From the sequence record NC_105617.1: a DNA stretch of 50,709 bases, one strand, 5' to 3'. The notes beneath the pieces are model-generated. The model saw nothing but the letters and a program-made list of their open reading frames with translations, was not told where the DNA came from and did no database searches. Below are positions 1 to 50,709 of this stretch, in pieces. A program made the translations under genes and the position numbers. Every line of letters begins with the position of its first letter. Within the stretch, counting starts at the first letter, position 1. This DNA is from a phage.

Positions 1-525
1 ATGAGTGAACCTAAGAACGCCCCTGTAGTTCAGGGAGGTAATTTCAAAGAGCTATACAAGAAAAAGTTTGGCACTGTTCTTGCGAAGAATCGGGCAATGA
101 CTCCTGAGCAATTATTCGATCTGTCAGTGAAGTATTTTGAATGGGCCGAAGATAATGCGATCAAGGCGTCAGAATCAGCCAGCTTCCAGGGTGGCGTTTA
201 CGAGTCACTTGTTCATAAGCCGCGCGTCTTCACTTGGACCGGATACCGACTATTCATAGGAGCAAGCGAGGCCGCAATCATTAAATGGAAACGCGAGGAA
301 GAATACAGTGAGGTTATGGAGTTCGTGGAATCTGTAATCAACGAGCAAAAATTCCAGCTTGCTGCCAACGGTGTGATTAACGCCTCCTTTATCGGTAAGG
401 ATTTGGGAATCGATAAACCAGCCTCAATCAATATCGAAAACTCGTCAGCTTCCGCATCGACAGTAGTCGCCACTACTGAGGATGCAATGAAAGAGGCAGT
501 AAACAGCATTCTTGATATGCTTTAA
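1..525 (+). CDS. Terminase small subunit (putative)
   Basis: 174-aa ORF immediately upstream of the large terminase; ATG at window position 1 is preceded by an RBS (gaagagga) at the window end if the genome is circular; no diagnostic motif seen. Confidence 0.45.
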   Translation: MSEPKNAPVVQGGNFKELYKKKFGTVLAKNRAMTPEQLFDLSVKYFEWAEDNAIKASESASFQGGVYESLVHKPRVFTWTGYRLFIGASEAAIIKWKREEEYSEVMEFVESVINEQKFQLAANGVINASFIGKDLGIDKPASINIENSSASASTVVATTEDAMKEAVNSILDML

Positions 526-563
526 CGTTAGGGGCGCGCAAGCGCCCATACAGGAGAATTGAT

Positions 564-2132
564 ATGATTCAATGGGAAGAACTCGACGCAACTCAGAAGT
601 TAGCGATCAAGAAAATGAGCGAGGCCAATTTCGAAAAAATGATTCGGATCTGGTTCCAGCTTATGCAGGCGCAGCAGTTCCAACCTAACTGGCATCACCT
701 TTACCTATGCCACGAAGTGGAGGAAATTATTGCAGGCCGACGCGGGAATACTATCTTTAACGTCACGCCCGGTTCCGGTAAGACTGAGGTGTTCTCAATC
801 CACCTTCCGGTTTACGCGATGCTCAAGTGTAAGAAGGTGCGAAACCTTAACGTGTCGTTTGCCGATAGCCTGGTTAAGCGTAACAGTAAGCGAGTGCGTG
901 AGATTATCAGCAGCAACGAGTTCCAGGAGCTATGGCCCTGTAAGTTCGGCACATCAAAAGACGAAGAGATGCAAGTCCTTAACAGCGACGGTAAGGTCTG
1001 GTTCGAACTAATCTCCGCAGCGGCTGGCGGTCGAATTACAGGTTCGCGTGGCGGCTACATGACGCCAGGATTCTCCGGGATGGTAATGCTCGACGATATA
1101 GACAAGCCTGACGATATGTTCTCAAAGGTTAAGCGTGAGCGTACTCACATGCTATTAAAGAACACCATACGATCCCGTCGTATGCACAACGAGACGCCTA
1201 TTATCGCAATCCAGCAGCGACTGCACGCGCAGGATTCAACTTGGTTTATGATGAATGGAGGTATGGGTATTGAGTTTGATCAGATCTCGATTCCGGCACT
1301 AGTAACTGAGGAATACGGAAAGACGCTTCCTGACTGGTTACAACCATACTTCGAGCGCGACGTTTTGTCGTCTGAGTATGTAGAATTGGATGGAGTTAAG
1401 CATTACTCATTCTGGCCCAGCAAGGAGAGTGTTCACGACCTATTGGCTTTGCGCGAAGCGGACCAGTACACCTTTGATTCTCAGTATCAACAGAAGCCGA
1501 TAGCGCTTGGTGGCTCCGTGTTTAACTCGGAGTGGTGGACTTATTACGGAAGCAGCCTTGACGCTGACGAGCCAGATCCGGGTAAATATGATTACCGTTT
1601 TATCACCGCTGATACCGCTCAGAAGACAGGTGAGCTAAACGACTACACAGTCTTTTGTTTATGGGGTAAGAAAAACGATAAGGTTTACTTTATCGACGGC
1701 ATTCGCGGAAAGTGGGAAGCGCCTGATATGGAGAAACAATTTACCGCCTTCGTGAATCAGGCATGGAGGCACAATAAATCAATGGGTGTGCTTCGCAAAA
1801 TCTACGTGGAAGATAAGGCGAGCGGGACGGGATTGATTCAGAACTTAAGGAAAAAGACTCCGATCTCAATCACACCATTGCAGCGTAACAAAGATAAGGT
1901 TACCCGAGCTATGGATGCTCAGCCAGTAATTAAGGCCGGGCGCGTGGTTCTTCCAGAAGAGCACCCTATGCTTGCGGAAATCATCGCAGAACATAGCGCC
2001 TTCACTTACGATGACACCCATCCGCATGATGATATCGTCGATAACTTCATGGATGCGGCGAACATCGAATTGCTGACCATTGATGATCCTATCGAGAGAA
2101 TGAAGCGACTCGCCGGGATGGTTAAGCGGTAA
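564..2132 (+). CDS. Terminase large subunit
   Basis: 522 aa; Walker A-like TPGSGKTE and Walker B-like VMLDDID; C-terminal acidic nuclease-like region; position before portal. Confidence 0.85.
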   Translation: MIQWEELDATQKLAIKKMSEANFEKMIRIWFQLMQAQQFQPNWHHLYLCHEVEEIIAGRRGNTIFNVTPGSGKTEVFSIHLPVYAMLKCKKVRNLNVSFADSLVKRNSKRVREIISSNEFQELWPCKFGTSKDEEMQVLNSDGKVWFELISAAAGGRITGSRGGYMTPGFSGMVMLDDIDKPDDMFSKVKRERTHMLLKNTIRSRRMHNETPIIAIQQRLHAQDSTWFMMNGGMGIEFDQISIPALVTEEYGKTLPDWLQPYFERDVLSSEYVELDGVKHYSFWPSKESVHDLLALREADQYTFDSQYQQKPIALGGSVFNSEWWTYYGSSLDADEPDPGKYDYRFITADTAQKTGELNDYTVFCLWGKKNDKVYFIDGIRGKWEAPDMEKQFTAFVNQAWRHNKSMGVLRKIYVEDKASGTGLIQNLRKKTPISITPLQRNKDKVTRAMDAQPVIKAGRVVLPEEHPMLAEIIAEHSAFTYDDTHPHDDIVDNFMDAANIELLTIDDPIERMKRLAGMVKR

Positions 2133-2150
2133 TAAATGAGATATAATCAA

Positions 2151-2176
2151 GGCTGTCAATTGACGGCCTTTTTTTA
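2151..2176 (+). terminator. Intrinsic terminator-like hairpin between terL and portal
   Basis: ggctgtcaa/ttgacggcc stem then T7 run. Confidence 0.45.
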
Positions 2177-2189
2177 TTGGAGGGAAAGT

Positions 2190-3473
2190 ATGAAAATTGT
2201 TAAGCATGATGGTTATAACGATATCTTTAACGGCGGCGCGGACGGCTCACCTAAACCATTTTTTATGGTTGATGCGTCATATAACGTCGGCTCATTCTAT
2301 AACGATAACGCGACAGCGAAAAGAATTGTAGACGTGATCCCTGAAGAGATGGTTACGGCTGGTTTTAAAATATCAGGAGTCAAGGATGAAAAGGAGTTCA
2401 AATCTCTGTGGGATAGTTACAAAATTGATCCTAGCTTGGTTGATGTTCTTTGCTGGGCGCGCCTATACGGTGGAGCGGCTATTGTAGCGATCATTAATGA
2501 CAACAGAATGTTAACCAGCCCTGTTAAACCTGGAGCTAAACTTGAAGGTGTGCGTGTTTATGATAGATTCGCAATTACAATCGAAAAAAGAGTAACTAAT
2601 GCTCGATCGCCTCGCTATGGTGAACCTGAGATCTATAAGGTGTCTCCTGGTGACAATATTCAACCTTACTTAATCCACCACACAAGAATTTTTATTGCTG
2701 ATGGTGAGCGAGTAACACCTCAGATTCGAAAGCAGAATCAAGGGTGGGGTGCTTCAGTTTTGAATAAGTCACTGATTGATGCGATCTGCGATTACGACTA
2801 CTGCGAATCTCTAGCGACTCAGATCCTGAGGCGTAAGCAGCAGGCGGTATGGAAAGTCAAAGGTCTTGCTGAAATGTGTGATGATGATGATGCTCAGTAT
2901 GCAGCGCGCTTGAGACTGGCTCAGGTTGACGATAATTCAGGTGTTGGCCGTGCGATCGGTATCGATGCCGAGACGGAAGAATACGACGTTTTAAACTCTG
3001 ATATCAGCGGAGTTCCTGAGTTCCTATCAAGCAAGATGGACCGCATTGTCTCGCTTTCTGGTATCCATGAGATTATCATCAAGAATAAGAACGTAGGCGG
3101 CGTATCAGCGAGCCAAAACACAGCGCTTGAGACTTTCTATAAGCTAGTCGATCGCAAGCGAGAGGAAGATTACAGGCCGCTTCTTGAGTTCTTGTTGCCG
3201 TTCATTGTTGACGAAGAAGAGTGGTCCATCGAGTTTGAGCCGCTGTCGGTCCCGAGCAAGAAAGAAGAATCCGAGATCACGAAGAACAACATTGAGTCGG
3301 TAACGAAAGCTATCACCGAGCAAATCATCGATCTGGAAGAAGCTCGCGACACGTTACGATCCATTGCGCCTGAGTTCAAACTCAAGGATGGTAATAACAT
3401 CAACATTCGCGAACCGGAAGAAACAACAGAGCCGGAACCGGGATTAGGGGAGAAGTTAGAAGATGAAAATTAA
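2190..3473 (+). CDS. Portal protein
   Basis: 427 aa directly after terL; start placed at ATG 2190 behind RBS GGAGGG (track ORF from 2136 has no RBS); acidic C-terminus. Confidence 0.7.
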   Translation: MKIVKHDGYNDIFNGGADGSPKPFFMVDASYNVGSFYNDNATAKRIVDVIPEEMVTAGFKISGVKDEKEFKSLWDSYKIDPSLVDVLCWARLYGGAAIVAIINDNRMLTSPVKPGAKLEGVRVYDRFAITIEKRVTNARSPRYGEPEIYKVSPGDNIQPYLIHHTRIFIADGERVTPQIRKQNQGWGASVLNKSLIDAICDYDYCESLATQILRRKQQAVWKVKGLAEMCDDDDAQYAARLRLAQVDDNSGVGRAIGIDAETEEYDVLNSDISGVPEFLSSKMDRIVSLSGIHEIIIKNKNVGGVSASQNTALETFYKLVDRKREEDYRPLLEFLLPFIVDEEEWSIEFEPLSVPSKKEESEITKNNIESVTKAITEQIIDLEEARDTLRSIAPEFKLKDGNNINIREPEETTEPEPGLGEKLEDEN

Positions 3474-4224
3474 TGGCGTTGCAACACAGTGGCGCTATCC
3501 TGAAATGAGCGAGCGCGCAATGTCGCGCTCCTTACAGGATGTTGCAGCCAGACTAACAGAAAGAATGCGTGACGAATTAAAGCCGATGAAATTTGACGCT
3601 ACCGACGAAGAGATAGACCAAGCGGAAAGGTCATTGCTTGATTACGTCGAATCTCTAATCGCGCCGATTATCGGATCTCTATCATCCGTCGCGCTAACTA
3701 TCTATAAATTCAACTCTAAGCAGTGGTTGCGAATAGCTCGAAATGCTGGAGGTAAGAAGAATCAAGCCGTAATGCTACTTGCCCTGATTGGTCCTACCGC
3801 TGCCGAAAACTGGTACTCAGGACAATATAATCTGTGGAGATCGCAGGTGACTACTTCTATCAGGAAATTTGCCGCCAACATGGTTACTGATTTCACTGAT
3901 AAACTTCGTGCGGCATCCGGTCAGGGTAAAAGCAAGGATTTTGTTGTTGAACTTGCTAAGGAGAGATTTGGTATTTACCGGAATTGGGCCAAAAACAGAG
4001 CGTCGGGGATTGTCGGAACATGGAACAGTAGACTGATGCGGCAGCGCATAAAAGACGCTGGAGTCTCTTACTATTTCTGGCGAGGGGTGATGGATTTACG
4101 TGAACGTGAAAAGCATGTAAGATGGGAAGGTAAGCGTATAGCGGTAGATTCCGATCACGTATTCCCGGGTGAAGAATACAATTGCCGCTGTTGGGCTGTT
4201 CCAGACTTTTCTACAGGAGATTAA
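3463..4224 (+). CDS. Minor head / head morphogenesis protein (putative)
   Basis: 253 aa, overlaps portal stop; conserved position after portal in siphovirus head modules. Confidence 0.45.
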   Translation: MKINGVATQWRYPEMSERAMSRSLQDVAARLTERMRDELKPMKFDATDEEIDQAERSLLDYVESLIAPIIGSLSSVALTIYKFNSKQWLRIARNAGGKKNQAVMLLALIGPTAAENWYSGQYNLWRSQVTTSIRKFAANMVTDFTDKLRAASGQGKSKDFVVELAKERFGIYRNWAKNRASGIVGTWNSRLMRQRIKDAGVSYYFWRGVMDLREREKHVRWEGKRIAVDSDHVFPGEEYNCRCWAVPDFSTGD

Positions 4225-4226
4225 AA

Positions 4227-5339
4227 ATGAAGGCAAAACAAAGATTCGATTCCGTAAAAATCAAGGCGCACTTTGATGATAATGGTTTTTTGGTTGACCG
4301 TCCCATCGTGGCGAGAATCGGCGCTCAGGTTTACAATACTCCCCACGGCGATCGCGTCGAGTTCCGTCCGGCGTCCGAAGTTTTCAAGCAAGATTCCTTG
4401 CAAAGTTTTGCAGGCAAGCCGATCACAGTCGGTCACGTAACTGTGACTCCGCAAAATGCTAAGGACGTTGTTGTAGGATCGTGCGCTGGCGCTGGTATTG
4501 CTTCAGGCGTTGGAGTTGAAGTCCCTTTGAGCATTTACAGCGACTACGCGATCAGCAAGGCTAAAGCAAAAGAAGCTGGTGAATTATCTGTTGGCTACAC
4601 GTCAGTAGATATTGATAAGCCGGGATGGGGTTCAAATGAGACTGGAGAATATATCTTCGAAGAGGATATGAAACAGGACGAAGCGCCGCCTGAAGGTTGG
4701 GTTAAATTCGATGCTGTTCAAACAAACATCAAGGTAAACCACATTGCACTTGTTTTCAAGGGTCGCGCTGGAATTGCTAAATTAAACCTTGATGCCGAGC
4801 AGGAGTTCCCGTATGATAATAACGTTCAATTAACTAACGAGGACAAGCAAATGAAAAAAATTAAGATCGACTCAGTTGATGTGGAAGTGACCGAAGATGT
4901 TGCGAACCATATCGAAAAATTAACCGCGCAGATTGCCGCCATTCAGGGGAAAGCTGATGGCTTCGAAGCTGAGCGCGATGCGCTGAAGGTTAAGGTTGAC
5001 TCCCTGCCGGAACTGGTGAAGGCCGAAGTAGAGAAGCAAAAAGCTGACGCCGCAGCGCGTGCTGAAGTCACCGCAGTAGCGGAAACCGCAGGCGTTAAGC
5101 ATGATGGTCTTGATATCAAAGACGTTAAGGTAGCTGTTGTCAAAGCCATGCTTGATAAAGATGTTAGCGAAAAATCAGACGCATATATCGACGCTATGTT
5201 TGATGTTGCTAAGGATTCTGATATTATGGCTATTCAGCGTAAGGCGGTAAAAGGCGATTCTATCGAAGGCGGTAAGCCGGAAGAGAAAAACGACGCCGCA
5301 CCTGTTACGCCAAATTCACGTTTAAGCAAAGTAATGTAA
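4227..5339 (+). CDS. Prohead protease/scaffold-like protein (putative)
   Basis: Start at ATG 4227 with RBS GGAG; globular N-terminal half plus C-terminal coiled-coil rich in E/K/A; located between portal and capsid genes. Confidence 0.4.
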   Translation: MKAKQRFDSVKIKAHFDDNGFLVDRPIVARIGAQVYNTPHGDRVEFRPASEVFKQDSLQSFAGKPITVGHVTVTPQNAKDVVVGSCAGAGIASGVGVEVPLSIYSDYAISKAKAKEAGELSVGYTSVDIDKPGWGSNETGEYIFEEDMKQDEAPPEGWVKFDAVQTNIKVNHIALVFKGRAGIAKLNLDAEQEFPYDNNVQLTNEDKQMKKIKIDSVDVEVTEDVANHIEKLTAQIAAIQGKADGFEAERDALKVKVDSLPELVKAEVEKQKADAAARAEVTAVAETAGVKHDGLDIKDVKVAVVKAMLDKDVSEKSDAYIDAMFDVAKDSDIMAIQRKAVKGDSIEGGKPEEKNDAAPVTPNSRLSKVM

Positions 5340-5350
5340 GGGGAAATATC

Positions 5351-5827
5351 ATGGCACAGATTAATGCATCTTATCAGCGAGACATGGCTATTGCGCTTCC
5401 GGGTATGGTTGCGGATACTTCGAAGTATAATATTGATGGCGCTTGCGTCGTTAACGAAGGTGATGTTTTTGTTGGCGCTGCCGTACAGGTTGTTCAAGCC
5501 CAAGCCGTTGACGGCCATAAATTGGTTAAGGCTATGGAATCGTCTAAAGTGCCGTATGGCGTAGCTATTCGATCTCACTGGCAGACTGTGAACAAAGATA
5601 ATCAGATGATTTACGAAGATGGCGGTGCTATCAACGTCATGACCTCCGGGCGAGTCTGGATGCTTTCCAAATCAGAAGAAGCACCAACTTTCGGGACCGC
5701 TGTAAAACTTGACGTTGACGGTCAAGAGAAATCTGATGGTACGATCGAAACAACTTGGACCTACGCTGGCGGCTGGACCAAATATAAAGACATTCAGCTT
5801 GTTGAAGTTCAGTTGCATCAACTGTAA
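5351..5827 (+). CDS. Capsid-associated protein, paralog 1
   Basis: 158 aa; shares motifs YNIDG-CV, PYG-A-RS, GRVW, W-T-AGG with the next gene; followed by an intrinsic terminator. Confidence 0.35.
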   Translation: MAQINASYQRDMAIALPGMVADTSKYNIDGACVVNEGDVFVGAAVQVVQAQAVDGHKLVKAMESSKVPYGVAIRSHWQTVNKDNQMIYEDGGAINVMTSGRVWMLSKSEEAPTFGTAVKLDVDGQEKSDGTIETTWTYAGGWTKYKDIQLVEVQLHQL

Positions 5828-5842
5828 TTAGTGTTTAATATG

Positions 5843-5873
5843 GGGACTATCCTTTTGGGTAGTCCTTTTTTTA
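5843..5873 (+). terminator. Intrinsic terminator
   Basis: ggactatcc-tttt-gggtagtcc hairpin followed by T-run. Confidence 0.6.
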
Positions 5874-5886
5874 TGGAGAAAATACT

Positions 5887-6654
5887 ATGCCTTACGAAAA
5901 TTTAATGTTACGCCCGGCGTGCCCTGGTAATCTTTCGGATACTTCAACCTACAATATTGATGGATCTTGTGTTGCTCAAGGCGATATTGAGTTCGGCTCC
6001 GCTGTTAAAGTTATCGGTATTGTTGACGGCGTTAAGGTTGTTTCCACGCTTACTGATGGTGAAACACCTTACGGAATCGCTTTCCGTTCCCAATATGAAC
6101 ACCTGAGCGGTAAAATCCTCGACGGTGAAGTTTGCAACGTCGTTTCTCATGGTCGCGTGTGGACGCTAACTTCTCTTGATGAAGCTCCGGCCTTGTTCTC
6201 AAAGTTACAATTTGGATCTGGTGGTGTTGTTACTGGTAGCTCTGGTTCCGTAGGTTGGACTTTTGCTGGTGGATTTGTTAAGCACGAGGACGGGTACATT
6301 ATTGAGGTTCAGGTTAAGCAAAATGCCTTTATTGTTCCACCTCCACCCCCTCCCGTGGTTCTTGTTGAGTCTGCGACGATTACAACTAACAAGGAGAGTC
6401 CTCAGCCAAACAATGCACCTGTGCAATTTAACGTTGCTGTAAAACCTGACAATGCCACCGATAAAACTGGCGTGTGGTCTGTTGATGCTGAAAATATTGC
6501 GACAATAGATCCAAAATCTGGCGTTCTTACTCCAATTGGTGGAGATGCGGCAGGTAGCGTAATCGTAAATTGGACGGCTAACGATGCCAGCAAAACTAAA
6601 GAATCGATCACTTATGTTTTTGATGCTGCGCCAGCCGAAGAAGAAGAGTCATAA
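5887..6654 (+). CDS. Capsid decoration-like protein with C-terminal Ig-like domain, paralog 2
   Basis: 255 aa; N-terminal domain paralogous to 5351-5827, poly-proline linker (PPPPPPP), C-terminal Ig-like segment. Confidence 0.4.
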   Translation: MPYENLMLRPACPGNLSDTSTYNIDGSCVAQGDIEFGSAVKVIGIVDGVKVVSTLTDGETPYGIAFRSQYEHLSGKILDGEVCNVVSHGRVWTLTSLDEAPALFSKLQFGSGGVVTGSSGSVGWTFAGGFVKHEDGYIIEVQVKQNAFIVPPPPPPVVLVESATITTNKESPQPNNAPVQFNVAVKPDNATDKTGVWSVDAENIATIDPKSGVLTPIGGDAAGSVIVNWTANDASKTKESITYVFDAAPAEEEES

Positions 6655-6674
6655 CACAAAAATACTTTGACGCT

Positions 6675-6696
6675 TTAACAAAAAGTGCTATTATTG
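6675..6696 (+). promoter_or_regulatory. Reverse-oriented TAGCAC box forming extended -10 (TGcTATTAT) upstream of major capsid gene
   Basis: ttaacaaaaagtgctattattg; box is the reverse complement of the early-cassette box. Confidence 0.4.
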
Positions 6697-6697
6697 A

Positions 6698-6727
6698 AGC
6701 CGTGAACATAATCACGGCTTTTTTTAT
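6698..6727 (+). terminator. Intrinsic terminator
   Basis: agccgtga...cacggct hairpin plus T-run, upstream of capsid gene RBS. Confidence 0.55.
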
Positions 6728-6746
6728 TAACTAAGGAGAAGTAATC

Positions 6747-7706
6747 ATGACTACTAAAAAATTTGATGAAGCAGATAAGAGCAATGTTGAAATGTATCTG
6801 ATCCAGGCTGGCGTAAAACAGGATGCAGCCGCAACGATGGGTATCTGGACCGCTCAGGAACTACACCGCATCAAAAGCCAGTCCTATGAAGAAGACTACC
6901 CGGTAGGCTCCGCACTTCGAGTATTCCCGGTTACTACCGATCTATCTCCGACCGACAAGACGTTTGAGTATATGACCTTTGATAAGGTTGGTACTGCGCA
7001 GATTATCGCTGACTATACAGATGACCTGCCTCTGGTTGATGCGCTTGGTACTTCTGAGTTCGGTAAGGTGTTCCGCTTGGGTAACGCGTACCTGATTTCA
7101 ATCGACGAAATCAAAGCAGGTCAGGCAACTGGTCGACCGCTGTCAACCCGCAAGGCAAGCGCGTGTCAGTTAGCGCATGACCAACTGGTTAACCGTCTGG
7201 TGTTCAAAGGTTCCGCGCCGCACAAGATCGTGTCCGTGTTCAACCATCCGAACATCACCAAAATTACCTCCGGTAAGTGGATGAATGTCTCAACTCCGAA
7301 GCCGGAAACGGCTGAAGCGGAATTGACTCAGGCGATTGAAACCATCGAGACGATTACTCGCGGTCAGCATCGTGCAACCAACATTCTGATCCCGCCGTCC
7401 ATGCGTAAGGTTCTGGCGATCCGTATGCCTGAAACTACCATGTCTTACCTGGACTATTTCAAGTCTCAGAATGCTGGTATCGAAATCGACTCTATCGCAG
7501 AGCTTGAAGATATCGACGGTGCGGGTACTAAAGGCGTACTGGTGTACGAAAAAAATCCGATGAATATGTCCATCGAGATCCCGGAAGCATTTAACATGCT
7601 GCCAGCGCAGCCGAAAGACCTTCACTTTAAAGTGCCTTGCACCTCCAAGTGTACTGGCCTTACAATTTATCGTCCGATGACTATTGTCTTAATCACTGGC
7701 GTGTAA
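6747..7706 (+). CDS. Major capsid protein
   Basis: 319 aa ORF bracketed by intrinsic terminators, strong RBS AAGGAG; position and size typical of a siphovirus coat protein. Confidence 0.65.
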   Translation: MTTKKFDEADKSNVEMYLIQAGVKQDAAATMGIWTAQELHRIKSQSYEEDYPVGSALRVFPVTTDLSPTDKTFEYMTFDKVGTAQIIADYTDDLPLVDALGTSEFGKVFRLGNAYLISIDEIKAGQATGRPLSTRKASACQLAHDQLVNRLVFKGSAPHKIVSVFNHPNITKITSGKWMNVSTPKPETAEAELTQAIETIETITRGQHRATNILIPPSMRKVLAIRMPETTMSYLDYFKSQNAGIEIDSIAELEDIDGAGTKGVLVYEKNPMNMSIEIPEAFNMLPAQPKDLHFKVPCTSKCTGLTIYRPMTIVLITGV

Positions 7707-8046: not shown

Positions 8047-8052
8047 TCAACA

Positions 8053-43163: not shown

Positions 43164-43196
43164 ATCAAAACGACACACCAATCAGAGGATTTCACC

Positions 43197-43460: not shown

Positions 43461-43466
43461 ATAATC

Positions 43467-43694: not shown

Positions 43695-43801
43695 ACTTCA
43701 ATACAATAGCTCTATGGTCTGCCGTCTGGTTCTTCTGCATGGGTCACGTTATGGTCGGCATCGTGGTAATGCTTCTCCTGTGTGCGGGGGCGTTCGAATG
43801 A
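43691..43801 (+). CDS. Small transmembrane peptide (micro-ORF)
   Basis: 36 aa MNFNTIALWSAVWFFCMGHVMVGIVVMLLLCAGAFE; ATGA overlap with both neighbours. Confidence 0.3.
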   Translation: MNFNTIALWSAVWFFCMGHVMVGIVVMLLLCAGAFE

Positions 43802-43971
43802 TGCGAATATTGATTTGCATGATGGCGGCGGTCGCCCTGGCTATCCTGGTAGTGTCAGGATGCGGAGAGGTCAGAGATAGCTGTCATAAGACCGGGAACC
43901 AGGTTACTACGCTTGTGATGGTTGGCAACGTTTTGCTACCAATCACATCAAATGAGATCACTTGCGAATAG
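43798..43971 (+). CDS. Small lipoprotein (putative)
   Basis: 57 aa from ATG 43798; signal peptide MMRILICMMAAVALAILVVSGC with lipobox VSGC. Confidence 0.4.
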   Translation: MMRILICMMAAVALAILVVSGCGEVRDSCHKTGNQVTTLVMVGNVLLPITSNEITCE

Positions 43972-43980
43972 GATTTAAAA

Positions 43981-44172
43981 ATGGCTGATTTTATGCACCA
44001 AATGATTGCAGTATTCAAAGGTAGCGAAGATGAGGAAGTAAAAGAGTGCTTTACTGTCGACAAGCATTATAACGCTTCGCTAACCAGCTTCGGTAACATC
44101 TCATTGCTTGATGATAATGGCGATCCCTGGGTATTCGATGAAGATACGGATTGCTTCGAAATTAAAGAATAG
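43981..44172 (+). CDS. Small acidic protein
   Basis: 63 aa rich in D/E; stop TAG inside a TAGCAC box. Confidence 0.45.
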   Translation: MADFMHQMIAVFKGSEDEEVKECFTVDKHYNASLTSFGNISLLDDNGDPWVFDEDTDCFEIKE

Positions 44173-44218
44173 CACTTTTTGTTAAAACGCGATCATGTGG
44201 TTGCGATATAGTAACCAC
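44170..44218 (+). promoter_or_regulatory. Box-hairpin-(-10) cassette
   Basis: TAG stop = box start; ttgtta + 22 nt + TATAGT; hairpin gtggtt/aaccac. Confidence 0.55.
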
Positions 44219-44243
44219 ATCGACAACGAATGAGGACGAGAAC

Positions 44244-44732
44244 ATGAAAATTAAATTACTGTGCACTGGCGGTTACAAAGGCTTTACTCGCGACCTGGAA
44301 TCAGACCCGATTATCGTTGACGCTGTGAAGTGCGATGATAGCACGGGCGGCTACCGCGTCAAGGTTGACGACCTGGTAAAAGCTGGCGTGTACGATCTGG
44401 ATTACGGCCTATCGGTTAGTCCAGTATTTGGCCCGGCTGACTTCAACGAAAATGACGGAACGATGTTCTTTTTTGAATGGGAAGTCCAGGCAAACATCAA
44501 GCCGCGCAAGGTTCGACTTCTCAACAATGGCGGGTATCCTATGCGCCCTGGTTATGAGAATCGCACGTTCCCGGTTATTGTTGACTTTGAGGAAATTACC
44601 AGCACCCTGGCTTACGTTGGAAATGAACAACTCAATGCTGTAGGTTTTTGGGGTGGGATGAATAAAGAGTCTCTTTGCTTCTTCCATCGCGACACCGAAC
44701 CGTTCTCTATTGAGTGCGAGTTAGTTTACTGA
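44244..44732 (+). CDS. Hypothetical protein
   Basis: 162 aa behind cassette 44170-44218. Confidence 0.5.
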   Translation: MKIKLLCTGGYKGFTRDLESDPIIVDAVKCDDSTGGYRVKVDDLVKAGVYDLDYGLSVSPVFGPADFNENDGTMFFFEWEVQANIKPRKVRLLNNGGYPMRPGYENRTFPVIVDFEEITSTLAYVGNEQLNAVGFWGGMNKESLCFFHRDTEPFSIECELVY

Positions 44733-44780
44733 GCACGAATTGTTAAAAGGGGATTCGTCCTGACTGGTACAATCCACATA
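44730..44780 (+). promoter_or_regulatory. Box-hairpin-(-10) cassette
   Basis: tGAgcacgaattgttaaaag + 22 nt + TGgTACAAT. Confidence 0.5.
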
Positions 44781-44803
44781 TCAACCACTAAGAGGAAATC
44801 ATT

Positions 44804-45310
44804 ATGTTGAAATTAGAAGACGTAAAATTCCCGATTAAATTTATCAGCCTGGGTTGCGGTGAAATTACATTCACCAGTGAAGATAAAGGCAAGTGGGCAA
44901 CTGATGAGGTGTCTCAGCTTAAGTTGGATTGGTTTATCAATAGGCACAATGAAGTAAATCCTGAAAACTCAGCCAAGAAGGATTACCATTACATTATTAG
45001 TGGTAGTCAGGATGTGTACGAAAAGTATGATGGTTGGAAAACTGATCGATCCATCTTCCACCCCGCAAAGCCAGAAATTAAACCGATGTTACAATGCACT
45101 CAGATCGAGAACATGCCATTGAGCGCTACGATAAAGGGCGTCCAACTTGATAGCGAATCCTGGGCCGAGATTACCGCAACACCTAAAACTATTGAGGTGC
45201 ATGATGATGTAGTGATTCTCCTATTGCATTACGGCAGCTTTAAGCACAAAACGGTATCAGGTGAAATAAGCATTAAGCGCGGAACACTTGTACGCTATGA
45301 GGTGAAATAA
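44804..45310 (+). CDS. Hypothetical protein
   Basis: 168 aa behind cassette 44730-44780. Confidence 0.5.
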   Translation: MLKLEDVKFPIKFISLGCGEITFTSEDKGKWATDEVSQLKLDWFINRHNEVNPENSAKKDYHYIISGSQDVYEKYDGWKTDRSIFHPAKPEIKPMLQCTQIENMPLSATIKGVQLDSESWAEITATPKTIEVHDDVVILLLHYGSFKHKTVSGEISIKRGTLVRYEVK

Positions 45311-45459
45311 TGGCTTCATGGGTTTTGATTATCTTAATGAGTACCGGGCCAGATCACGTATACATGGAAAGCCAACAATCATGCAACAAGGCTCGGGAGG
45401 TGATTTCAGAGAACAGGCCGTTCGGATACGAAGTAAAAACGATGTGCGTTAAACGATAG
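45310..45459 (+). CDS. Small hypothetical protein (micro-ORF)
   Basis: 49 aa with hydrophobic N-terminus (MASWVLIILMSTG); TAATG overlap upstream; stop TAG is the TAG of a TAGCAC box. Confidence 0.3.
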   Translation: MASWVLIILMSTGPDHVYMESQQSCNKAREVISENRPFGYEVKTMCVKR

Positions 45460-45505
45460 CACGAATTGATAAACCTTCCGCAAGGCCATTTGATATAGTG
45501 GCCTT
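45457..45505 (+). promoter_or_regulatory. Box-hairpin-(-10) cassette
   Basis: TAG stop of micro-ORF = box start; ttgata + 22 nt + TGaTATAGT; hairpin aaggcca/tggcctt. Confidence 0.55.
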
Positions 45506-45539
45506 ATTGAAGCAAGGCAACCAATCAGAGGAATCAGCT

Positions 45540-45746
45540 ATGGCTACACGACTAACTCAGTGGCAGATTTACGACAAGGCCTCACGCCTACGTGAATCAC
45601 TTCGCGGACTGACGCAGAATGACAGAATGGAGATTATCGGGCACGCATTGCACGAACTCACGCCGCCGGACGTAACCTATCATTCATGCGGCAATAAATT
45701 CTGGAACGTGACATTCGAGGTAAAGAAAGATGAGCAAAACTCATAA
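45540..45746 (+). CDS. Hypothetical protein
   Basis: 68 aa from ATG 45540 behind CCAATCAGAGGA leader. Confidence 0.45.
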   Translation: MATRLTQWQIYDKASRLRESLRGLTQNDRMEIIGHALHELTPPDVTYHSCGNKFWNVTFEVKKDEQNS

Positions 45747-46017
45747 GTTAAAAATCGCCCCGATACATTTCATTGGTGTAATGAACGGAACCAAAACGGC
45801 AGAGTTCCGCATCAATGACCGCAACTTCCAGGTTGGTGATATCCTTGAGCTACGCGAGTTCGATCGTGACGAGTTTACCGGGTGGGAAGTTCACGCAAGG
45901 GTATCCGATGTTACCGATGTGACGCCATACATTAATCGCGGGTATGACGATCAAGGATGCGACTTCACGCAATACGTGATGTTATCAATCAAACCTTACA
46001 GGAAGGTTAGACCATGA
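45730..46017 (+). CDS. ASCH/PUA-like domain protein (putative)
   Basis: 95 aa; N-terminal pattern KTHKLKIAPIHFIGVMNGTKTAEFRINDRNFQVGDIL resembles ASCH-type domains; weak. Confidence 0.35.
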   Translation: MSKTHKLKIAPIHFIGVMNGTKTAEFRINDRNFQVGDILELREFDRDEFTGWEVHARVSDVTDVTPYINRGYDDQGCDFTQYVMLSIKPYRKVRP

Positions 46018-46670
46018 AATTTGAATGCGTATCAAGTAGCGGATCGGGCTTTAAGTGGGGAAAAATCTACGAAGGCGCTCGAGTCAATGACGACAGCTTC
46101 GTTGTCGTGGATGAGAACGGCAGTAACGTTAACATCACCCGTCGTAACGAGTACCAAGAAATTTTCCTGCCGTATGGCGGTAGTTCAAAATATATCTTCC
46201 ATCGAATCGTGGATGGTGTTAAATTTAGAGACGTAATCGAAGCAATCAACCAACTGCATAATAAAGAGGTAAAATTTATGAAATTTGAATGTATCAGCGA
46301 TAACACCAAAAAATTTACTGTTGGAAAAATCTACGACGTTCCTACTGAGCACGCAAAGCACACTGTAGCGCTTACTGACGACACTGGCCGTCACCGCATC
46401 GCTACCGTAACGCATAATGGCGAAGGTCTGCGATGGAATAGCGGCGGCACTAAGTTTGCAACGTTCGGCAAGAAGAAGCAGAAATTTAATACCAGTAGAA
46501 TCAAGGGCGGTTTCCGCATCGAACAGGGTAAGATTCAAAGCGTTAAGCCAATCGAAGTTGATGGTAAAGTCAAGCCTAAGCTGACCAACAAGGACATTGA
46601 TAATCTGGCGAACCTGGCTATGGCTACCGTGCTTCTTATTTCTCTTATCGTGCTGTTTTTCGTAGTTTAA
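46014..46670 (+). CDS. Tail-anchored membrane protein with tandemly duplicated N-terminal domain
   Basis: Two about 88-aa repeats each starting MKFEC(V/I)S...GKIY(E/D), second with its own SD AAGAGG; C-terminal TM LANLAMATVLLISLIVLFFVV. Confidence 0.5.
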   Translation: MKFECVSSSGSGFKWGKIYEGARVNDDSFVVVDENGSNVNITRRNEYQEIFLPYGGSSKYIFHRIVDGVKFRDVIEAINQLHNKEVKFMKFECISDNTKKFTVGKIYDVPTEHAKHTVALTDDTGRHRIATVTHNGEGLRWNSGGTKFATFGKKKQKFNTSRIKGGFRIEQGKIQSVKPIEVDGKVKPKLTNKDIDNLANLAMATVLLISLIVLFFVV

Positions 46671-46677
46671 CTTAAAG

Positions 46678-46709
46678 TGGGAATCGTTCCTGAGCGGTTC
46701 CCTATTTTT
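46678..46709 (+). terminator. Terminator-like hairpin
   Basis: gggaatcg/cggttccc stem (one G-T pair) followed by T-rich tract. Confidence 0.35.
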
Positions 46710-46720
46710 ATGAGGTGAAT

Positions 46721-46843
46721 ATGAATAGCTTTATGCCTGACTTTAAGAACTGGAAAAACGAACCTCCATCATTTCAGGAGTTGCTATTCTGCCTCCTGGT
46801 CCTGACATTATCTCTTAAGGGTGTTTTATGGCTACTATCATGA
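46721..46843 (+). CDS. Small hypothetical protein (micro-ORF)
   Basis: 40-aa ORF with RBS GAGGTG and hydrophobic C-terminal half; overlaps next gene start. Confidence 0.25.
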   Translation: MNSFMPDFKNWKNEPPSFQELLFCLLVLTLSLKGVLWLLS

Positions 46844-47046
46844 CAGCAGAAGATGCAGCACGTGAAGCAGTGGAAGGAATGCGACCAAATACCTCCAGAA
46901 TCGCACACTACTACAAATTTGACGTATCGGCAGTGCAATTGGTCCATGAAATTTTAAGGCTCCCACAAGTCGATTCAGCGCGTGTGGTGGCGTGCTTAAA
47001 AAATTATTTTTGCATCACTATTAAAACGAATAGCACGAATTGCTAA
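46828..47046 (+). CDS. Hypothetical protein
   Basis: 72 aa; last five codons (NSTNC-stop) are encoded by a TAGCAC box. Confidence 0.45.
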   Translation: MATIMTAEDAAREAVEGMRPNTSRIAHYYKFDVSAVQLVHEILRLPQVDSARVVACLKNYFCITIKTNSTNC

Positions 47047-47079
47047 AACCTATCAAGGGGAATGCGCTATGATTCCCCT
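47031..47079 (+). promoter_or_regulatory. Box-hairpin-(-10) cassette
   Basis: Box encodes last codons NSTNC-TAA of upstream gene; ttgcta + 22 nt + TATGAT; hairpin ggggaat/attcccc. Confidence 0.5.
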
Positions 47080-47103
47080 ACACCAACGAACGAGGGAATA
47101 CTC

Positions 47104-47550
47104 ATGAAACACTTGATTTGCATTGATACACCTAACAATGAACACACTCTGCACGGCATTGGGATGTTCAAAGGCCACTACATGACAGCAAGCATTTATG
47201 ATGCGCATCGCGACGATGGCGATCTGATGATTACGTCAAAAGACGTTAATCCGTACATCATGCAGAATCTTGGCAACAATGAATATATGGCTTACGGATG
47301 CAACGCGGTGTACAAGAATGTCAAGATCCGTAAGCGTATTGTTCGCGCATTTAAGAAAATCGCCATGAAGCACTGGAAGATGAGCAAGAAGGAGGCTGGG
47401 CGCTGGGCGCGTAACGTTGCTGATTCATACTTCTATCGTAACGGTGAGTCGTGCCACTTCCTGATCGATGAAATGATGGAAAATTATAGCGGCACATTCC
47501 GCCAAAGTGATTTTGACGCTTGGGCTTACTACGAGGTAGATTGCTGGTAA
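47104..47550 (+). CDS. Hypothetical protein
   Basis: Start at ATG 47104 with RBS GAGGG, downstream of cassette 47031-47079. Confidence 0.45.
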   Translation: MKHLICIDTPNNEHTLHGIGMFKGHYMTASIYDAHRDDGDLMITSKDVNPYIMQNLGNNEYMAYGCNAVYKNVKIRKRIVRAFKKIAMKHWKMSKKEAGRWARNVADSYFYRNGESCHFLIDEMMENYSGTFRQSDFDAWAYYEVDCW

Positions 47551-47597
47551 TAGCACGAATTGCTAAAACTTACTCAAGGGCATTTGGTAGAATGCCC
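47551..47597 (+). promoter_or_regulatory. Box-hairpin-(-10) cassette
   Basis: ttgcta + 22 nt + TGgTAGAAT; hairpin gggcat/atgccc; CCAATCAGAGGA leader downstream. Confidence 0.55.
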
Positions 47598-47633
47598 TTC
47601 GTTGAGTTAAACAACCAATCAGAGGAATAAATC

Positions 47634-48167
47634 ATGGATAAAATTACAATTTGGGGTCAAACTATCAACCTGTTTCTCGGTCCGCGCCGCGTCGCAATCT
47701 TTGACTTTGACGGAACACTGAGTGACGGATCAAAGCGCCTTCACCTGTTGCCAAAAAAGGATTTGCACTTGACTGAAAGCTGGTCTGAGTTTAATCGAGC
47801 CGCAATATTTGATAACCCCATCCAGAGCACGATTGAGGTGATGAACTCATTACGCCAAGCTGGGGTGTATGTAATCATTTTAACCGGGCGAAGCGATGAG
47901 GTGCGTTACGCATCTGAGTTATGGCTTAAGCATCACGGTGCGCGATATGATTACTTAGTCATGCGACCGCACACAGACAACCGGAAAGACACAGTGATGA
48001 AAGAGGAAGCGGTGCGAGCGATCGGTATTGAAAACATCCTCGCGGCTTGGGATGATTCACCGCAAATTATTCCATTATTCCGGTCGCTTGGAATAACCAC
48101 ATATGCTGTAGTTGACTATGGCGATAACGTTCACGATCATTTAAAATCGCACGGGGTAGAGAAATGA
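47634..48167 (+). CDS. HAD-superfamily phosphatase (polynucleotide 3'-phosphatase / nucleotidase-like)
   Basis: HAD motif I FDFDGTL, motif II ILTGRSD, DNRKDTVMKEE segment, motif IV AWDDSPQ; resembles the phosphatase domain of T4 polynucleotide kinase as recalled. Confidence 0.6.
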   Translation: MDKITIWGQTINLFLGPRRVAIFDFDGTLSDGSKRLHLLPKKDLHLTESWSEFNRAAIFDNPIQSTIEVMNSLRQAGVYVIILTGRSDEVRYASELWLKHHGARYDYLVMRPHTDNRKDTVMKEEAVRAIGIENILAAWDDSPQIIPLFRSLGITTYAVVDYGDNVHDHLKSHGVEK

Positions 48168-48274
48168 ACCTATACGAATTTATTGCAGCACATCCGGTAT
48201 TGACGGTTATCATCCTGCTAATCATCAATCACACTATCATAAATGTAGCAAAATTATTTTTAGGGAGATACTGA
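48164..48274 (+). CDS. Small transmembrane peptide (micro-ORF)
   Basis: 36-aa ORF MNLYEFIAAHPVLTVIILLIINHTIINVAKLFLGRY; ATGA overlap with phosphatase stop. Confidence 0.3.
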   Translation: MNLYEFIAAHPVLTVIILLIINHTIINVAKLFLGRY

Positions 48275-48275
48275 C

Positions 48276-48848
48276 ATGAAAACAGCTATCGTTTTAAACG
48301 GCGCGCCTGGAGCGGGAAAAGACACTATCGGATGCATCCTGGCTGACACTTACGATCACGTAGCCTTGCGCAGCTTCAAAGCGCCAATGTTTGAGATTGC
48401 CCGGGCAATCCTGGGTGAAGCTAACTACGAGTATTTCATGTTCTTGTATGAGGACCGTCGATATAAAGAAGAGCCAGCATCCATCCTGAACGGTAAAAGC
48501 CCACGCCAGTTTATGATCTGGATTAGCGAGGAAGTCATCAAGCCGCAGTTCGGAAATCGCTTCTTCGGTATGCGAGCGGAAAGCAAGGTGAAAGAGTCAC
48601 ACTCCCTTTCTGTATTTACTGACGGTGGATTCAAAGATGAGATCTTGCAAATGATTGAAGGCGATATCCAGGTCAAGCTATGCCGCATACATCGCAACGG
48701 CTGCAACTTCGATAACGACAGTCGAGATTATATCTACCTGGATGATATGATCGGTGTCAACGGTTATCAGGAATGTGACTTCTTCTCTGTCGAAGGTCAT
48801 CCAGAAATTACCGCTCAGCACATAGCCGCTACGTTCATCAACAAATAG
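48276..48848 (+). CDS. P-loop nucleoside-monophosphate kinase-like protein (dNMP kinase candidate)
   Basis: Walker A GAPGAGKDT at N-terminus; LNGKSP segment; overall resemblance to phage dNMP kinases as recalled. Confidence 0.5.
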   Translation: MKTAIVLNGAPGAGKDTIGCILADTYDHVALRSFKAPMFEIARAILGEANYEYFMFLYEDRRYKEEPASILNGKSPRQFMIWISEEVIKPQFGNRFFGMRAESKVKESHSLSVFTDGGFKDEILQMIEGDIQVKLCRIHRNGCNFDNDSRDYIYLDDMIGVNGYQECDFFSVEGHPEITAQHIAATFINK

Positions 48849-48895
48849 CACTAATTGCTAAAACGTCGGTGGGGTGATTTGATATAGTCACCTCA
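48846..48895 (+). promoter_or_regulatory. Box-hairpin-(-10) cassette
   Basis: TAG stop = box start; ttgcta + 22 nt + TGaTATAGT; hairpin ggtga/tcacc. Confidence 0.55.
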
Positions 48896-48920
48896 TCGAC
48901 AACGAAGAGAGAAAATAGAA

Positions 48921-49130
48921 ATGATGGTGTCAACTGATAAGTTTTTCACTTGCAATAAAACTTCTGAAGTATTCGAACTCGTTCATACTGATAACGGTGA
49001 TTTCATGCATGACGGTTGCGACGTTTTCATTGAAGTGAAAGAAAGCGACTATGATGACGGGGTTTATTACAACCCGGCAGTGAACACTCAGTTTTTTACA
49101 CCGATCGAAGGTGAGGGAGAAGAGGCATGA
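48921..49130 (+). CDS. Hypothetical protein
   Basis: 69 aa, acidic, behind cassette 48846-48895. Confidence 0.45.
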   Translation: MMVSTDKFFTCNKTSEVFELVHTDNGDFMHDGCDVFIEVKESDYDDGVYYNPAVNTQFFTPIEGEGEEA

Positions 49131-49471
49131 TTACGATTAACCTGTCAGAGAAGCAAGCTCGTGAAATCCTTGATGCGATCGGCGACCAGTTGCATATAAA
49201 AGGAGCAGCCGCCGAGTTGCTAAACCAGGTCGAAAAACAACTTACTCCTGTGTCAACGAATCAAGCTGAGTTTGCAGCCTGGAAAAGCGAGCGAATCCTG
49301 CCCAATATCATCAAGGCATGGAAGCGCAAGCATAAAAAAGAAATCAATGTTGATGACTTATTTACTGATGAATTAAGCCCTTCAAAGGTTGCTCAATATC
49401 AGTTGCGATACATGGAATCAGTTTGCAATCAGGTTTTAGGTGTTAATTTTTCATTTGGGAGAGGTAAATAA
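49127..49471 (+). CDS. Hypothetical protein
   Basis: 114 aa; ATGA overlap upstream. Confidence 0.45.
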   Translation: MITINLSEKQAREILDAIGDQLHIKGAAAELLNQVEKQLTPVSTNQAEFAAWKSERILPNIIKAWKRKHKKEINVDDLFTDELSPSKVAQYQLRYMESVCNQVLGVNFSFGRGK

Positions 49472-49701
49472 TGTTCGGTTTAAGTGAAGCGGAATGGAAC
49501 GTAGTAAAGCGCGCAGCGAAGGAATTGAATAAATTCGTTAGCGGAATGAAGAAAGAAGATCGCAAAAACGAAAAGATTATGATTGACGTAATTTCGACTC
49601 ACCATAAAAAGGTCGAACTACTCATTGACCGCTACAAATTTGTCTGGACTGCCGGGTATATTGCAGGGCGCGTAGGAAACAAAGAAGGGGATTACGAATA
49701 A
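49471..49701 (+). CDS. Hypothetical protein
   Basis: 76 aa; TAATG overlap. Confidence 0.45.
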   Translation: MFGLSEAEWNVVKRAAKELNKFVSGMKKEDRKNEKIMIDVISTHHKKVELLIDRYKFVWTAGYIAGRVGNKEGDYE

Positions 49702-49904
49702 TGGCTAATTTACCGAAGAAAGGCGATCAGGTTCGATGTGTCACCTCACGCAATGGTAATGCTTTCTCGGCGGGGTGCTTGTACGACGTAGAAAAAGTCA
49801 GTAAATCAAAGAGGCTTGTATTCGTGTACGGTGATGATGGAAACCTGCATGAGCTTGATTACCCGCAGGATGTAACTAATGGTCAATTCGAAATTAATGA
49901 TTGA
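49701..49904 (+). CDS. Hypothetical protein
   Basis: 67 aa; TAATG overlap. Confidence 0.45.
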   Translation: MANLPKKGDQVRCVTSRNGNAFSAGCLYDVEKVSKSKRLVFVYGDDGNLHELDYPQDVTNGQFEIND

Positions 49905-50068
49905 CCTAAATACCTGAGCGGTGATAGTATTAATCCCGTAGACAGACGAGGCGCAACTAAGCGCAACGCGTGAGACGATTCTCACACTTCCAGCTAACAA
50001 GCTCGGTTGCATAGTGGTTAAGCAACGCCGCAGACCCGTAAGCGGCAACAATTCAAGAGGGTTGCATA
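49905..50068 (+). repeat. Structured GCAAC/GTTGC repeat-rich intergenic region
   Basis: 164-nt gap in otherwise tight gene packing; GCAAC or its complement 6 times; hairpins gtgaga/tctcac, gccgc/gcggc, gttgc/gcaac. Confidence 0.4.
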
Positions 50069-50230
50069 ATGCAAAAAACTAAAGACGAATCAGTCAAAAT
50101 TGAAATTAAAGTAACTCGCAACGGTGAAACCACTCGTTATAAAAAACGATTAAATCCTGGAGAGGCTGTTATTGGTCGCATTGCTGGCGTTATGGTTAAG
50201 GCGCAGGAAGATGAAGCGATTCAAAGTTAA
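50069..50230 (+). CDS. Small hypothetical protein
   Basis: 53-aa ORF below track cutoff with RBS AGAGGG; start codon sits in a small hairpin (ttgcat/atgcaa). Confidence 0.3.
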   Translation: MQKTKDESVKIEIKVTRNGETTRYKKRLNPGEAVIGRIAGVMVKAQEDEAIQS

Positions 50231-50396
50231 ATTAATTATTCGAAAGATGGGAATGTTTTGCCAGTCGTGCAAGCAATCTTTCGAAACTGAATTATCAGCA
50301 ACCAGTCAGGCAGAAGCCATCGCGAAAGCAAAAAAACTTTCCGGAGCAAACCTTGACACTCACAAAATAAACATTGAATTAATTAAGGAGATTTAA
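50211..50396 (+). CDS. Hypothetical protein
   Basis: Start placed at internal ATG 50211 (MKRFKVK...); basic N-terminus. Confidence 0.35.
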   Translation: MKRFKVKLIIRKMGMFCQSCKQSFETELSATSQAEAIAKAKKLSGANLDTHKINIELIKEI

Positions 50397-50397
50397 C

Positions 50398-50625
50398 ATG
50401 GAAATTTTTTTATGGATTATCGCTGGTATCGTTATTTTTGGTGCTGGTTTATTTTCTGGCTTCGTTCTTGTAGCGTTCGCGATGGCTATGGAAGCAAAAG
50501 ATAAAACTGGCGTGTGGCTGACCTACTCACCTAAGAAGGACCAGTGGGAAATGATTGGTGATCTTGCTCACTGCTATTCTAAAGCACGGCTACACCATAA
50601 AGGCATTAAACGACGATTATCGTGA
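50398..50625 (+). CDS. Small membrane protein
   Basis: 75 aa with N-terminal TM helix (IFLWIIAGIVIFGAGLFSGFVLVAFAMAM); followed by terminator. Confidence 0.45.
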   Translation: MEIFLWIIAGIVIFGAGLFSGFVLVAFAMAMEAKDKTGVWLTYSPKKDQWEMIGDLAHCYSKARLHHKGIKRRLS

Positions 50626-50634
50626 TAATCAATA

Positions 50635-50657
50635 ACCCGCTACGGCGGGTTTTTTTA
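50635..50657 (+). terminator. Intrinsic terminator
   Basis: acccgc-tacg-gcgggt plus T7. Confidence 0.6.
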
Positions 50658-50709
50658 TGCCTGCGATATGGTAAAATAGCACTAAATGTTAAACGAAGAG
50701 GATTGATTT
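50658..50709 (+). promoter_or_regulatory. Post-terminator -10-like element and TAGCAC box leading to window end
   Basis: gcctgcGATATGg then tagcactaaatgttaaac and RBS gaagagga at the window end. Confidence 0.35.

Follow-up and report, generated by a model that had tools for sequence, protein, structure and literature searches.

A T1-like phage genome opened at its small terminase gene: identity, packaging and intergenic repeat modules of sequence record NC_105617.1

Which phage does sequence record NC_105617.1 represent, and do the two ends of this 50,709-nt stretch of DNA, analysed here over its full length and hereafter called the window, belong to one closed genome? From the sequence alone, an initial annotation had seen in it a whole T1-like phage genome, virulent and reoriented after circular assembly. 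Combining family scans (Pfam and PHROG), similarity searches and genome comparisons, we found the window to be the complete, unit-length, non-redundant genome of a T1-like siphovirus, and we are highly confident that it is that of Escherichia phage vB_EcoS_SA12KD, a virulent T1-like member of Tunavirus (Drexlerviridae), closing on itself and opened at the small terminase gene terS. This identity settles how the remainder of the window is to be read, i.e. as a virulent, host-RNA-polymerase-dependent, headful-packaging genome of the T1 type with contiguous ends.

The assignment to SA12KD relies on the gpJ-like protein, the lateral tail fibre and the Dcm-like methylase, which are identical over their full length to UIU28238.1, UIU28244.1 and UIU28271.1 of this phage, without any difference detected in the three proteins compared. 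SA12KD, which came from the faeces of dairy cattle in South Africa, has been reported as a lytic siphovirus of the T1 kind, with DNA that neither EcoRI nor HindIII cut (PMC6956337). Megablast of both halves of the window against 50,697 phage records returned strong matches to T1-like phages exclusively, the best being vB_EcoS_Chapo, XJA18, SA30RD, ISF002, the Sfin phages and LeonhardEuler, and the opened records of these best matches were classified as Drexlerviridae; Tunavirinae; Tunavirus. Aligned by blastn with T1 itself (NC_005833), the type species of Tunavirus, the window formed collinear high-scoring segment pairs (HSPs) covering 86% of its length at 88% identity, with synteny throughout. 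The T1-like affiliation proposed initially is therefore borne out by best nucleotide matches that all belong to Tunavirus, none of them to another phage family, and by full synteny with T1.

At the genus level, the criterion of the International Committee on Taxonomy of Viruses is a genome-wide nucleotide similarity of at least 70% to members or to the type species. With our own approximation to VIRIDIC, computed for four Tunavirus genomes, the similarity of the window reached 77.6% with T1, 88.4% with Chapo, 87.5% with SA30RD and 85.3% with LeonhardEuler, which, together with the T1 gene order and core gene set, places it in Tunavirus; the 95% species line was not reached with any of these four. 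Chapo (MT682715) and SA30RD (OL960579) were the closest of the genomes compared, differing from the window in their lateral-fibre tips and in several swapped early cassettes. The identity to Chapo was 97.6% over positions 1-24134, the structural half, and about 93% in the other half. This genus is well known and its member studied here had been deposited before; the finding is correct but ordinary.

The two ends of the window are those of a circle. Base 1 is the ATG of a 174-amino-acid (aa) open reading frame (ORF) on the plus strand, terS, and GAAGAGGA is located at 50695-50702, i.e. 7 nt ahead of this ATG once the window is wrapped around. As a bare 8-mer, GAAGAGGA was not significant in the window (3 matches for 1.46 expected), and its reading as the ribosome-binding site (RBS) of terS comes instead from its surroundings: the final 150 nt line up position by position with the stretch of equal length preceding terS in T1 and in Chapo, at 95% mean identity, and this conserved stretch spans a terminator, the ATAGCAC motif and the RBS. 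Moreover, a 3000-nt junction built from the last 1500 and first 1500 nt matched Chapo (7929-10928, 94.7%) and T1 (6896-9896, 91.5%) in one unbroken HSP each. No terminal self-overlap was present in the window, and the records of SA30RD, SA32RD and LeonhardEuler open at the identical terS base. Since the ends join without gap or overlap and the record start is shared, the window is a circular assembly of unit length linearised at terS, and its start point is an annotation convention. This agrees with what had been read from the letters: the small terminase ATG at the start and its matching RBS at the end follow from the TerS identity and the terS upstream context, and the reorientation of a circular assembly from a junction that aligns unbroken to T1 and Chapo.

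Such an assembly is what headful packaging would leave behind. TerS is identical to that of T1 and is a member of the P22 gp3 family, while TerL is 99% identical to its T1 counterpart, a combination by which T1-type pac/headful packaging is recognised in sequence. In T1 and TLS, headful packaging starts at pac and fills three to four heads in series, which leaves the DNA terminally redundant and partly permuted (PMC11447400). Because of these terminase identities and of the literature on T1, TLS and the close relatives Sfin-2/6, packaging in this phage is presumably pac-initiated and headful, yielding terminally redundant molecules with limited, non-random circular permutation. Virion DNA would be cut from concatemers at pac and packaged by headfuls in short processive series; the reads from these terminally redundant, partly permuted molecules would then assemble as a circle, which the depositors would have linearised at terS. 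Base 1 of the T1 record, the start of its annotated 2.8-kb terminal repeat_region, maps to window position 41088 (GTTGCATGGTGTGCAAC), where the inverted repeat GTTGCA-TGGTG-TGCAAC is conserved; the first cut is probably made near 41088, and the non-coding region 41019-41610 would be the likely pac neighbourhood.

We consider very unlikely a T1-like genome whose packaged ends are instead fixed, by cos or by exact direct terminal repeats, with no permutation. Permutation is not visible in the sequence itself, and a defined pac start gives the first molecule of each T1 series a fixed left end; but headful packaging is established for T1, with whose terminases those of the window are identical or nearly so, TerS falls in the P22 gp3 family, Sfin-2/6 were found without cohesive ends and with blurred terminal fragments (PMC10716491), and PhageTerm gave no fixed termini for the Tunavirus KanT1 (PMC13164509).

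The differences from T1 describe what is particular to this member of the genus. Gene order, the lysis cassette, Dam, Erf/RecE and an intergenic repeat are common to T1 and the window, whereas the three HNH endonuclease genes of T1 (ST63, ST15 and ST8) are absent, several small early genes differ and the lateral fibre has another tip. A 1.8-kb block (39269-41087) missing from T1 carries the Dcm-like C5-methyltransferase gene, whose 234-aa product displays motifs I (FDGSG), IV (PPC) and VI (ENP) and is short for an enzyme of this class. No Pfam match at E<=0.1 and no PDB sequence match were obtained for this protein, and its assignment is based on phrog_757, database names and the visible motifs I, IV and VI; the neighbouring minus-strand ORF at 40785-41018 had no PHROG match. 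As for the lateral fibre, its N-terminal part is conserved in Tunavirus, while positions 24137-25324 of the gene remained unaligned to T1, Chapo, SA30RD and LeonhardEuler, and the full-length relatives of its distal 398 aa (24134-25330) reached about 34-45% aa identity at best among the 50,697 phage records of INPHARED. Two Logan contigs each encode a 657-aa protein falling in the 90%-identity cluster of this fibre. The divergent tip probably corresponds to a rare glycan specificity.

The receptor-binding locus downstream of gpJ is the other major departure from T1. The FhuA-associated gp32/gp31/Cor cassette of T1 is absent, the alignment to T1 revealing no gp31 or gp32 homologue in the window, and is replaced by a receptor-binding protein (RBP) of the DUF6453 class and a different lipoprotein. 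The DUF6453 protein is 99.4% identical to that of SA30RD and 79% to that of Oekolampad (Bas18), and does not align to T1. The lipoprotein had initially been called Cor-like, a name which holds for its location at the cor position and for its Cor signal peptide and fails for its mature part: identity to T1 Cor is limited to residues 1-17, the signal peptide MKKLITIIAAAFILTGC, the mature part being unmatched, and the match to phrog_1119 is confined to residues 1-33. Cor lipoproteins of the T1/N15/phi80 kind act in superinfection exclusion and are usually encoded beside genes for gp31/gp32-like membrane proteins. We therefore rejected homology with Cor for the mature protein, the signal peptide alone being in common; the lipoprotein is a probable superinfection-exclusion partner of the RBP.

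The same arrangement of two minus-strand genes directly after gpJ is found in Oekolampad, a Dhillonvirus of another phage group that lacks both the gp23-like regulator and the ATAGCAC repeat of the window; its RBP is 79% and its lipoprotein 64% identical to those described here. Oekolampad depends on LptD, and its DUF6453-class ORF has been taken as the LptD RBP (PMC8594841, PMC13035648). LptD RBP loci are recognised by two opposite-strand genes immediately following gpJ, an ORF of about 930-960 bp and one for a small lipoprotein, with homology to their counterparts in LptD-dependent phages (PMC13035648, PMC8594841). Use of FhuA goes along with a cassette of Cor and gp31/32 (PMC13164509). The window carries such an LptD-associated locus, with an ORF of 975 bp. 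Because both proteins are homologous to those of an LptD-dependent phage and the FhuA-linked gp32/gp31/Cor cassette is missing, the terminal receptor is predicted to be probably LptD and not FhuA. If so, fhuA/tonA 'T1-resistant' strains would probably offer no protection against this phage.

Could these differences arise from an incomplete or chimeric assembly, i.e. a fragment or two T1-like phages joined? The identity of the window to any single relative is uneven, with the step in identity to Chapo at 24134 and several unaligned cassettes. Yet all T1 modules are present in T1 order, what is lacking relative to T1 can be traced to its three HNH genes, its RBP locus, the tip of its fibre and some small early genes, and two relatives align across the junction without interruption. 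Mosaicism of this genus usually shows as uneven identity, with breakpoints clustering at the repeat modules described below, and a protein of the 90%-identity cluster of the fibre occurs on each of the two Logan contigs (50,178 and 46,239 bp at their longest). A faulty assembly accordingly deserves hardly any credence.

The evidence equally supports a virulent phage, since lysogeny genes are lacking, no prophage copy was found in Escherichia coli genomes and the phage was published as lytic (PMC6956337). Neither integrase, CI-type repressor, antirepressor nor excisionase was found by Pfam and PHROG scans of ORFs of at least 170 aa and of the early or non-structural small ORFs, the ORFs at 7756-9694 lying outside these scans; all ORFs of at least 170 aa have an assigned family, none of which is an integrase or a recombinase. 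Searched by megablast, 5,426 complete E. coli genomes (20,395 records) contained nothing that matched either half, and thus no prophage relatives. The only helix-turn-helix (HTH) protein, encoded at 27204-27656 on the minus strand, corresponds at 97% identity to gp23 of T1, itself a virulent phage, and gp23-like proteins occur in 824 phage records, those listed being T1-like phages. The initial view of a virulent phage without integrase, repressor or antirepressor thus survives the family scans, the search of E. coli genomes and the published record. That the window is a prophage or a temperate element excised from a bacterial chromosome, as its lambda-like tail genes, its Erf/RecE module and one Cro-like HTH protein (weak P22_Cro), also occurring in temperate lambdoid phages, might suggest, is effectively refuted by these results, by an HTH protein that is the conserved gp23 of T1, by the absence of bacterial genes and by ends that join each other.

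Several points nevertheless weigh against the assignment or parts of it. At the sequence level, the identity with SA12KD consists of exact matches of three proteins, and the published description of this phage reports a size of about 44 kb by pulsed-field gel electrophoresis, below the 50.7-kb sequence, and a morphology-based placement in 'Jerseyvirinae' (PMC6956337); both conflict with the genome and we regard both as imprecise. The physical ends, the pac site and the size of the terminal redundancy are inferred from homology, the link between position 41088 and pac being drawn solely from the starting point of the T1 record, and the predicted use of LptD likewise comes from homology alone.

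Research interest in the window is confined to a family-wide intergenic repeat, ATAGCACnnnTTGnTAAA / TAGCACnnnTTGnTAAA, present in 23 copies at no more than one mismatch where 0.15 would be expected. A 21-nt repeat, aaATAGCACnnnTTGnTAAAA, has been reported for TLS and said to occur in T1, Rtp and Rogue1, its function being given as unknown; published copies are co-oriented with transcription and stand about 76 nt upstream of start codons (PMC11447400). The window copies belong to this 21-nt repeat of Drexlerviridae, 18 of the 23 being co-oriented with the next gene, with an ATG about 70-85 nt downstream. We counted 20 copies in T1 and 14, at the same offset, in 40 kb of a Klebsiella Webervirus, both with the module architecture described below, and none in a Dhillonvirus, also devoid of the gp23-like regulator. 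This co-occurrence of regulator and repeat is compatible with a link without being discriminating, as both are Drexlerviridae-wide.

Each module displays a constant architecture. In 17 of the 18 co-oriented copies, a -10-like TAnnnT hexamer occupies the exact offset 38-43, usually after G or TG, and the gap between TTGnTA and this hexamer is constantly 22 nt; we rejected TTGnTA as a sigma-70 -35 element, such a gap being too long for a -35/-10 pair. The repeat box itself forms an imperfect dyad, TAGCA-N5-TG[C/T]TA, centred near -42. A hairpin with a copy-specific stem lies before or around the hexamer (mean minimum free energy z of -3.2 over 19 folded copies, including the atypical 26129(+)), few of these hairpins having the T-rich tail that ordinary intrinsic terminators would have, and the RBS precedes the ATG. 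After the atypical 10455(-) copy, TGATACGAT might act as an antisense promoter directed at the gene for the tail tube.

The modules also mark where related genomes diverge. Over 26-50.7 kb, 18 of 60 alignment breakpoints fell within 25 nt of a module for 5.8 expected and a maximum of 14 in 2000 randomisations, the breakpoints, taken from comparisons with four relatives (T1, Chapo, SA30RD and LeonhardEuler), not being phylogenetically independent. Examples are found at 34965-34968, 39233-39269, 39596, 39662, 40037-40038, 40103, 41208, 42372, 43112, 44166, 45455 and 45525-45537. This clustering suggests a shuffling of cassettes via recombination at the repeats, as with the promoter-early stem-loops (PeSLs) of T4-type phages (PMC2839356, PMC4122927). 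Like PeSLs, the repeat modules are many short cassettes between small early genes, combining a promoter-like element with a stem-loop and enriched in breakpoints. PeSL sequences are unrelated to them, and, unlike PeSLs, the modules bear a near-invariant dyad-like box 22 nt upstream of the -10, with a hairpin placed before or around the -10 and mostly without U-tract; their promoter and terminator activities are putative. As a tentative proposal, which we hold to be possible without favouring it, the repeats could be operators for a Drexlerviridae-specific factor, the gp23-like HTH protein being a candidate, acting over extended -10 promoters devoid of -35, and would form with their hairpins portable cassettes that shuffle early genes by recombination. 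If true, they would be a T1-family analogue of the T4 PeSLs.

The remaining gene content is that of a T1-type phage (Table 1), and the lambda-like tail genes, Dam, unimolecular spanin (u-spanin), signal-anchor-release (SAR) endolysin and Erf with single-stranded DNA-binding protein (SSB) listed in the initial annotation were all recovered by Pfam, PHROG and inspection of translations. No match in the window was obtained by tRNA scan or from Rfam at gathering thresholds.

Table 1. Features of the 50,709-nt window, with coordinates, strand and basis of assignment
Feature	Position	Strand	Basis
terS, small terminase	1..525	+	Pfam GP3_package E=7e-10; 174/174 aa identical to T1 TerS
terL, large terminase	564..2132	+	Terminase_6C; 518/522 aa identical to T1 TerL
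Head module: portal, Mu-F-like head morphogenesis protein, prohead protease/scaffold, two cement/decoration proteins, major capsid protein (6747-7706)	2136..7706	+	Phage_portal_3, Major_capside, Phage_cement, Big_2, Phage_Mu_F, DUF2213, phrog_324, phrog_530
Head-tail joining genes, tail tube (9696-10364), tail assembly chaperone G/T pair (10478-10795, 10843-11112)	7756..11112	+	Phage_tail_3, Phage_TAC_4, phrog_680; ORFs at 7756-9694 by synteny with T1 ST46-ST39, not by family scan
Lambda-like tail tip module: tape measure, gpM-, gpL-, gpK-, gpI- and gpJ-like proteins	11152..20100	+	Pfam: TMP_2, Tape_meas_lam_C, Phage_min_tail, Phage_tail_L, Prok-JAB+NLPC_P60, Lambda_tail_I, FNIII-A_GpJ, Phage-tail_3, Phage_Tail_Tip
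DUF6453 protein, 324 aa, RBP locus downstream of gpJ, replacing T1 gp32/gp31	20128..21102	-	DUF6453 E=9e-123
Small lipoprotein, 76 aa, cor position	21096..21326	-	PF24052, phrog_4281; 64% to Oekolampad bas18_0026
AT-rich non-coding control region upstream of the recombination operon; TTGACT-N17-TATAAT at ~21797-21825	21327..21854	.	Sequence; 40.6% GC
Recombination module: RecE-like exonuclease, Erf annealase (22961-23641), SSB (23688-24104)	21855..24104	+	DUF3799, ERF, phrog_44
Lateral tail fibre; conserved N-terminus, divergent distal 398 aa with Peptidase_S74 chaperone domain	24134..26107	-	Peptidase_S74
Replication/modification block: primase (-), gp23-like HTH regulator 27204-27656 (-), helicase (+), VRR-NUC (+), Dam 30250-30963 (+)	26208..30963		Zn_Ribbon_Prim, weak P22_Cro, Helicase_C/ResIII, Dam E=5e-69, phrog_2856, VRR_NUC
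DNA-repair exonuclease, SH3-clan protein (33263-33439), holin (33558-33773), SAR endolysin (33773-34261), u-spanin (34258-34662)	32048..34662	+	phrog_704, phrog_1804, DUF7244 E=8.5e-29, Phage_lysozyme, translations
Leftward early block, small genes; DUF3987 helicase (35492-37123), Dcm-like C5-methyltransferase (40084-40788)	34675..41018	-	DUF3987, phrog_757, PHROG scans
Divergent non-coding region, containing the T1-base-1 equivalent 41088	41019..41610	.	Alignment to T1
Rightward early block, ~25 small genes; polynucleotide kinase/phosphatase (47634-48167), deoxynucleoside monophosphate (dNMP)-kinase-like P-loop protein (48276-48848)	41611..50625	+	HAD_PNKP, phrog_139, PHROG scans
Terminator, ATAGCAC motif and RBS GAAGAGGA serving terS across the junction	50634..50709	+	Alignment to T1/Chapo
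Repeat, typical copies, plus	27670, 30180, 31203, 42376, 43115, 44170, 44731, 45457, 47031, 47551, 48846	+	
Repeat, typical copies, minus	34970, 37132, 37632, 38151, 39267, 39682, 40099	-	
Repeat, atypical copies	6690(-), 10455(-), 26129(+), 41206(-), 50677(+)		

In the lysis region, the endolysin has a Gly/Ala/Ser/Thr-rich N-terminus followed by an E27-X8-D36-X5-T42 triad, and the u-spanin combines an LSGC lipobox and a C-terminal transmembrane domain in one chain, the features by which a SAR endolysin/u-spanin system with predicted membrane release is recognised. The lysis genes are those of a pinholin, a SAR endolysin and a u-spanin, and the cassette order reported for Tunavirus is the same as in the window (PMC13164509). 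Between the DNA-repair exonuclease and the holin stands a separate 58-aa SH3-clan protein (DUF7244, plus strand), matching an SH3-clan accessory gene of the lysis module recently reported for Tunavirus (PMC13164509).

Over the whole window, sites for EcoRI, HindIII, BamHI, PstI, EcoKI and EcoBI were absent (0 each for 5-14 expected); EcoRV has 26 sites. The published insensitivity of SA12KD DNA to EcoRI and HindIII is explained by this absence, and base modification is not needed as an explanation. GATC (243 sites) and CCWGG (94 sites) are not avoided; genes for Dam and for a Dcm-like enzyme are present in the phage.

The two largest non-coding regions, 21327-21854 and 41019-41610, are both AT-rich and have a ATATATATAGATA-type repeat in common (41302-41368 in the second). 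Both also contain multiple GTTACA/TGTGAC-like short repeats and near-consensus sigma-70 promoters facing the early operons, and they are candidates for immediate-early control regions, origin or pac. In addition, a GC-rich terminator hairpin with a T-run, followed by a TGnTAnAAT-like extended -10, occurs in three copies (14398-14434, 16577-16613 and 50635-50671), upstream of gpL, gpJ and terS, respectively, which fits the 'transcripton' organisation described for the late region of T1.

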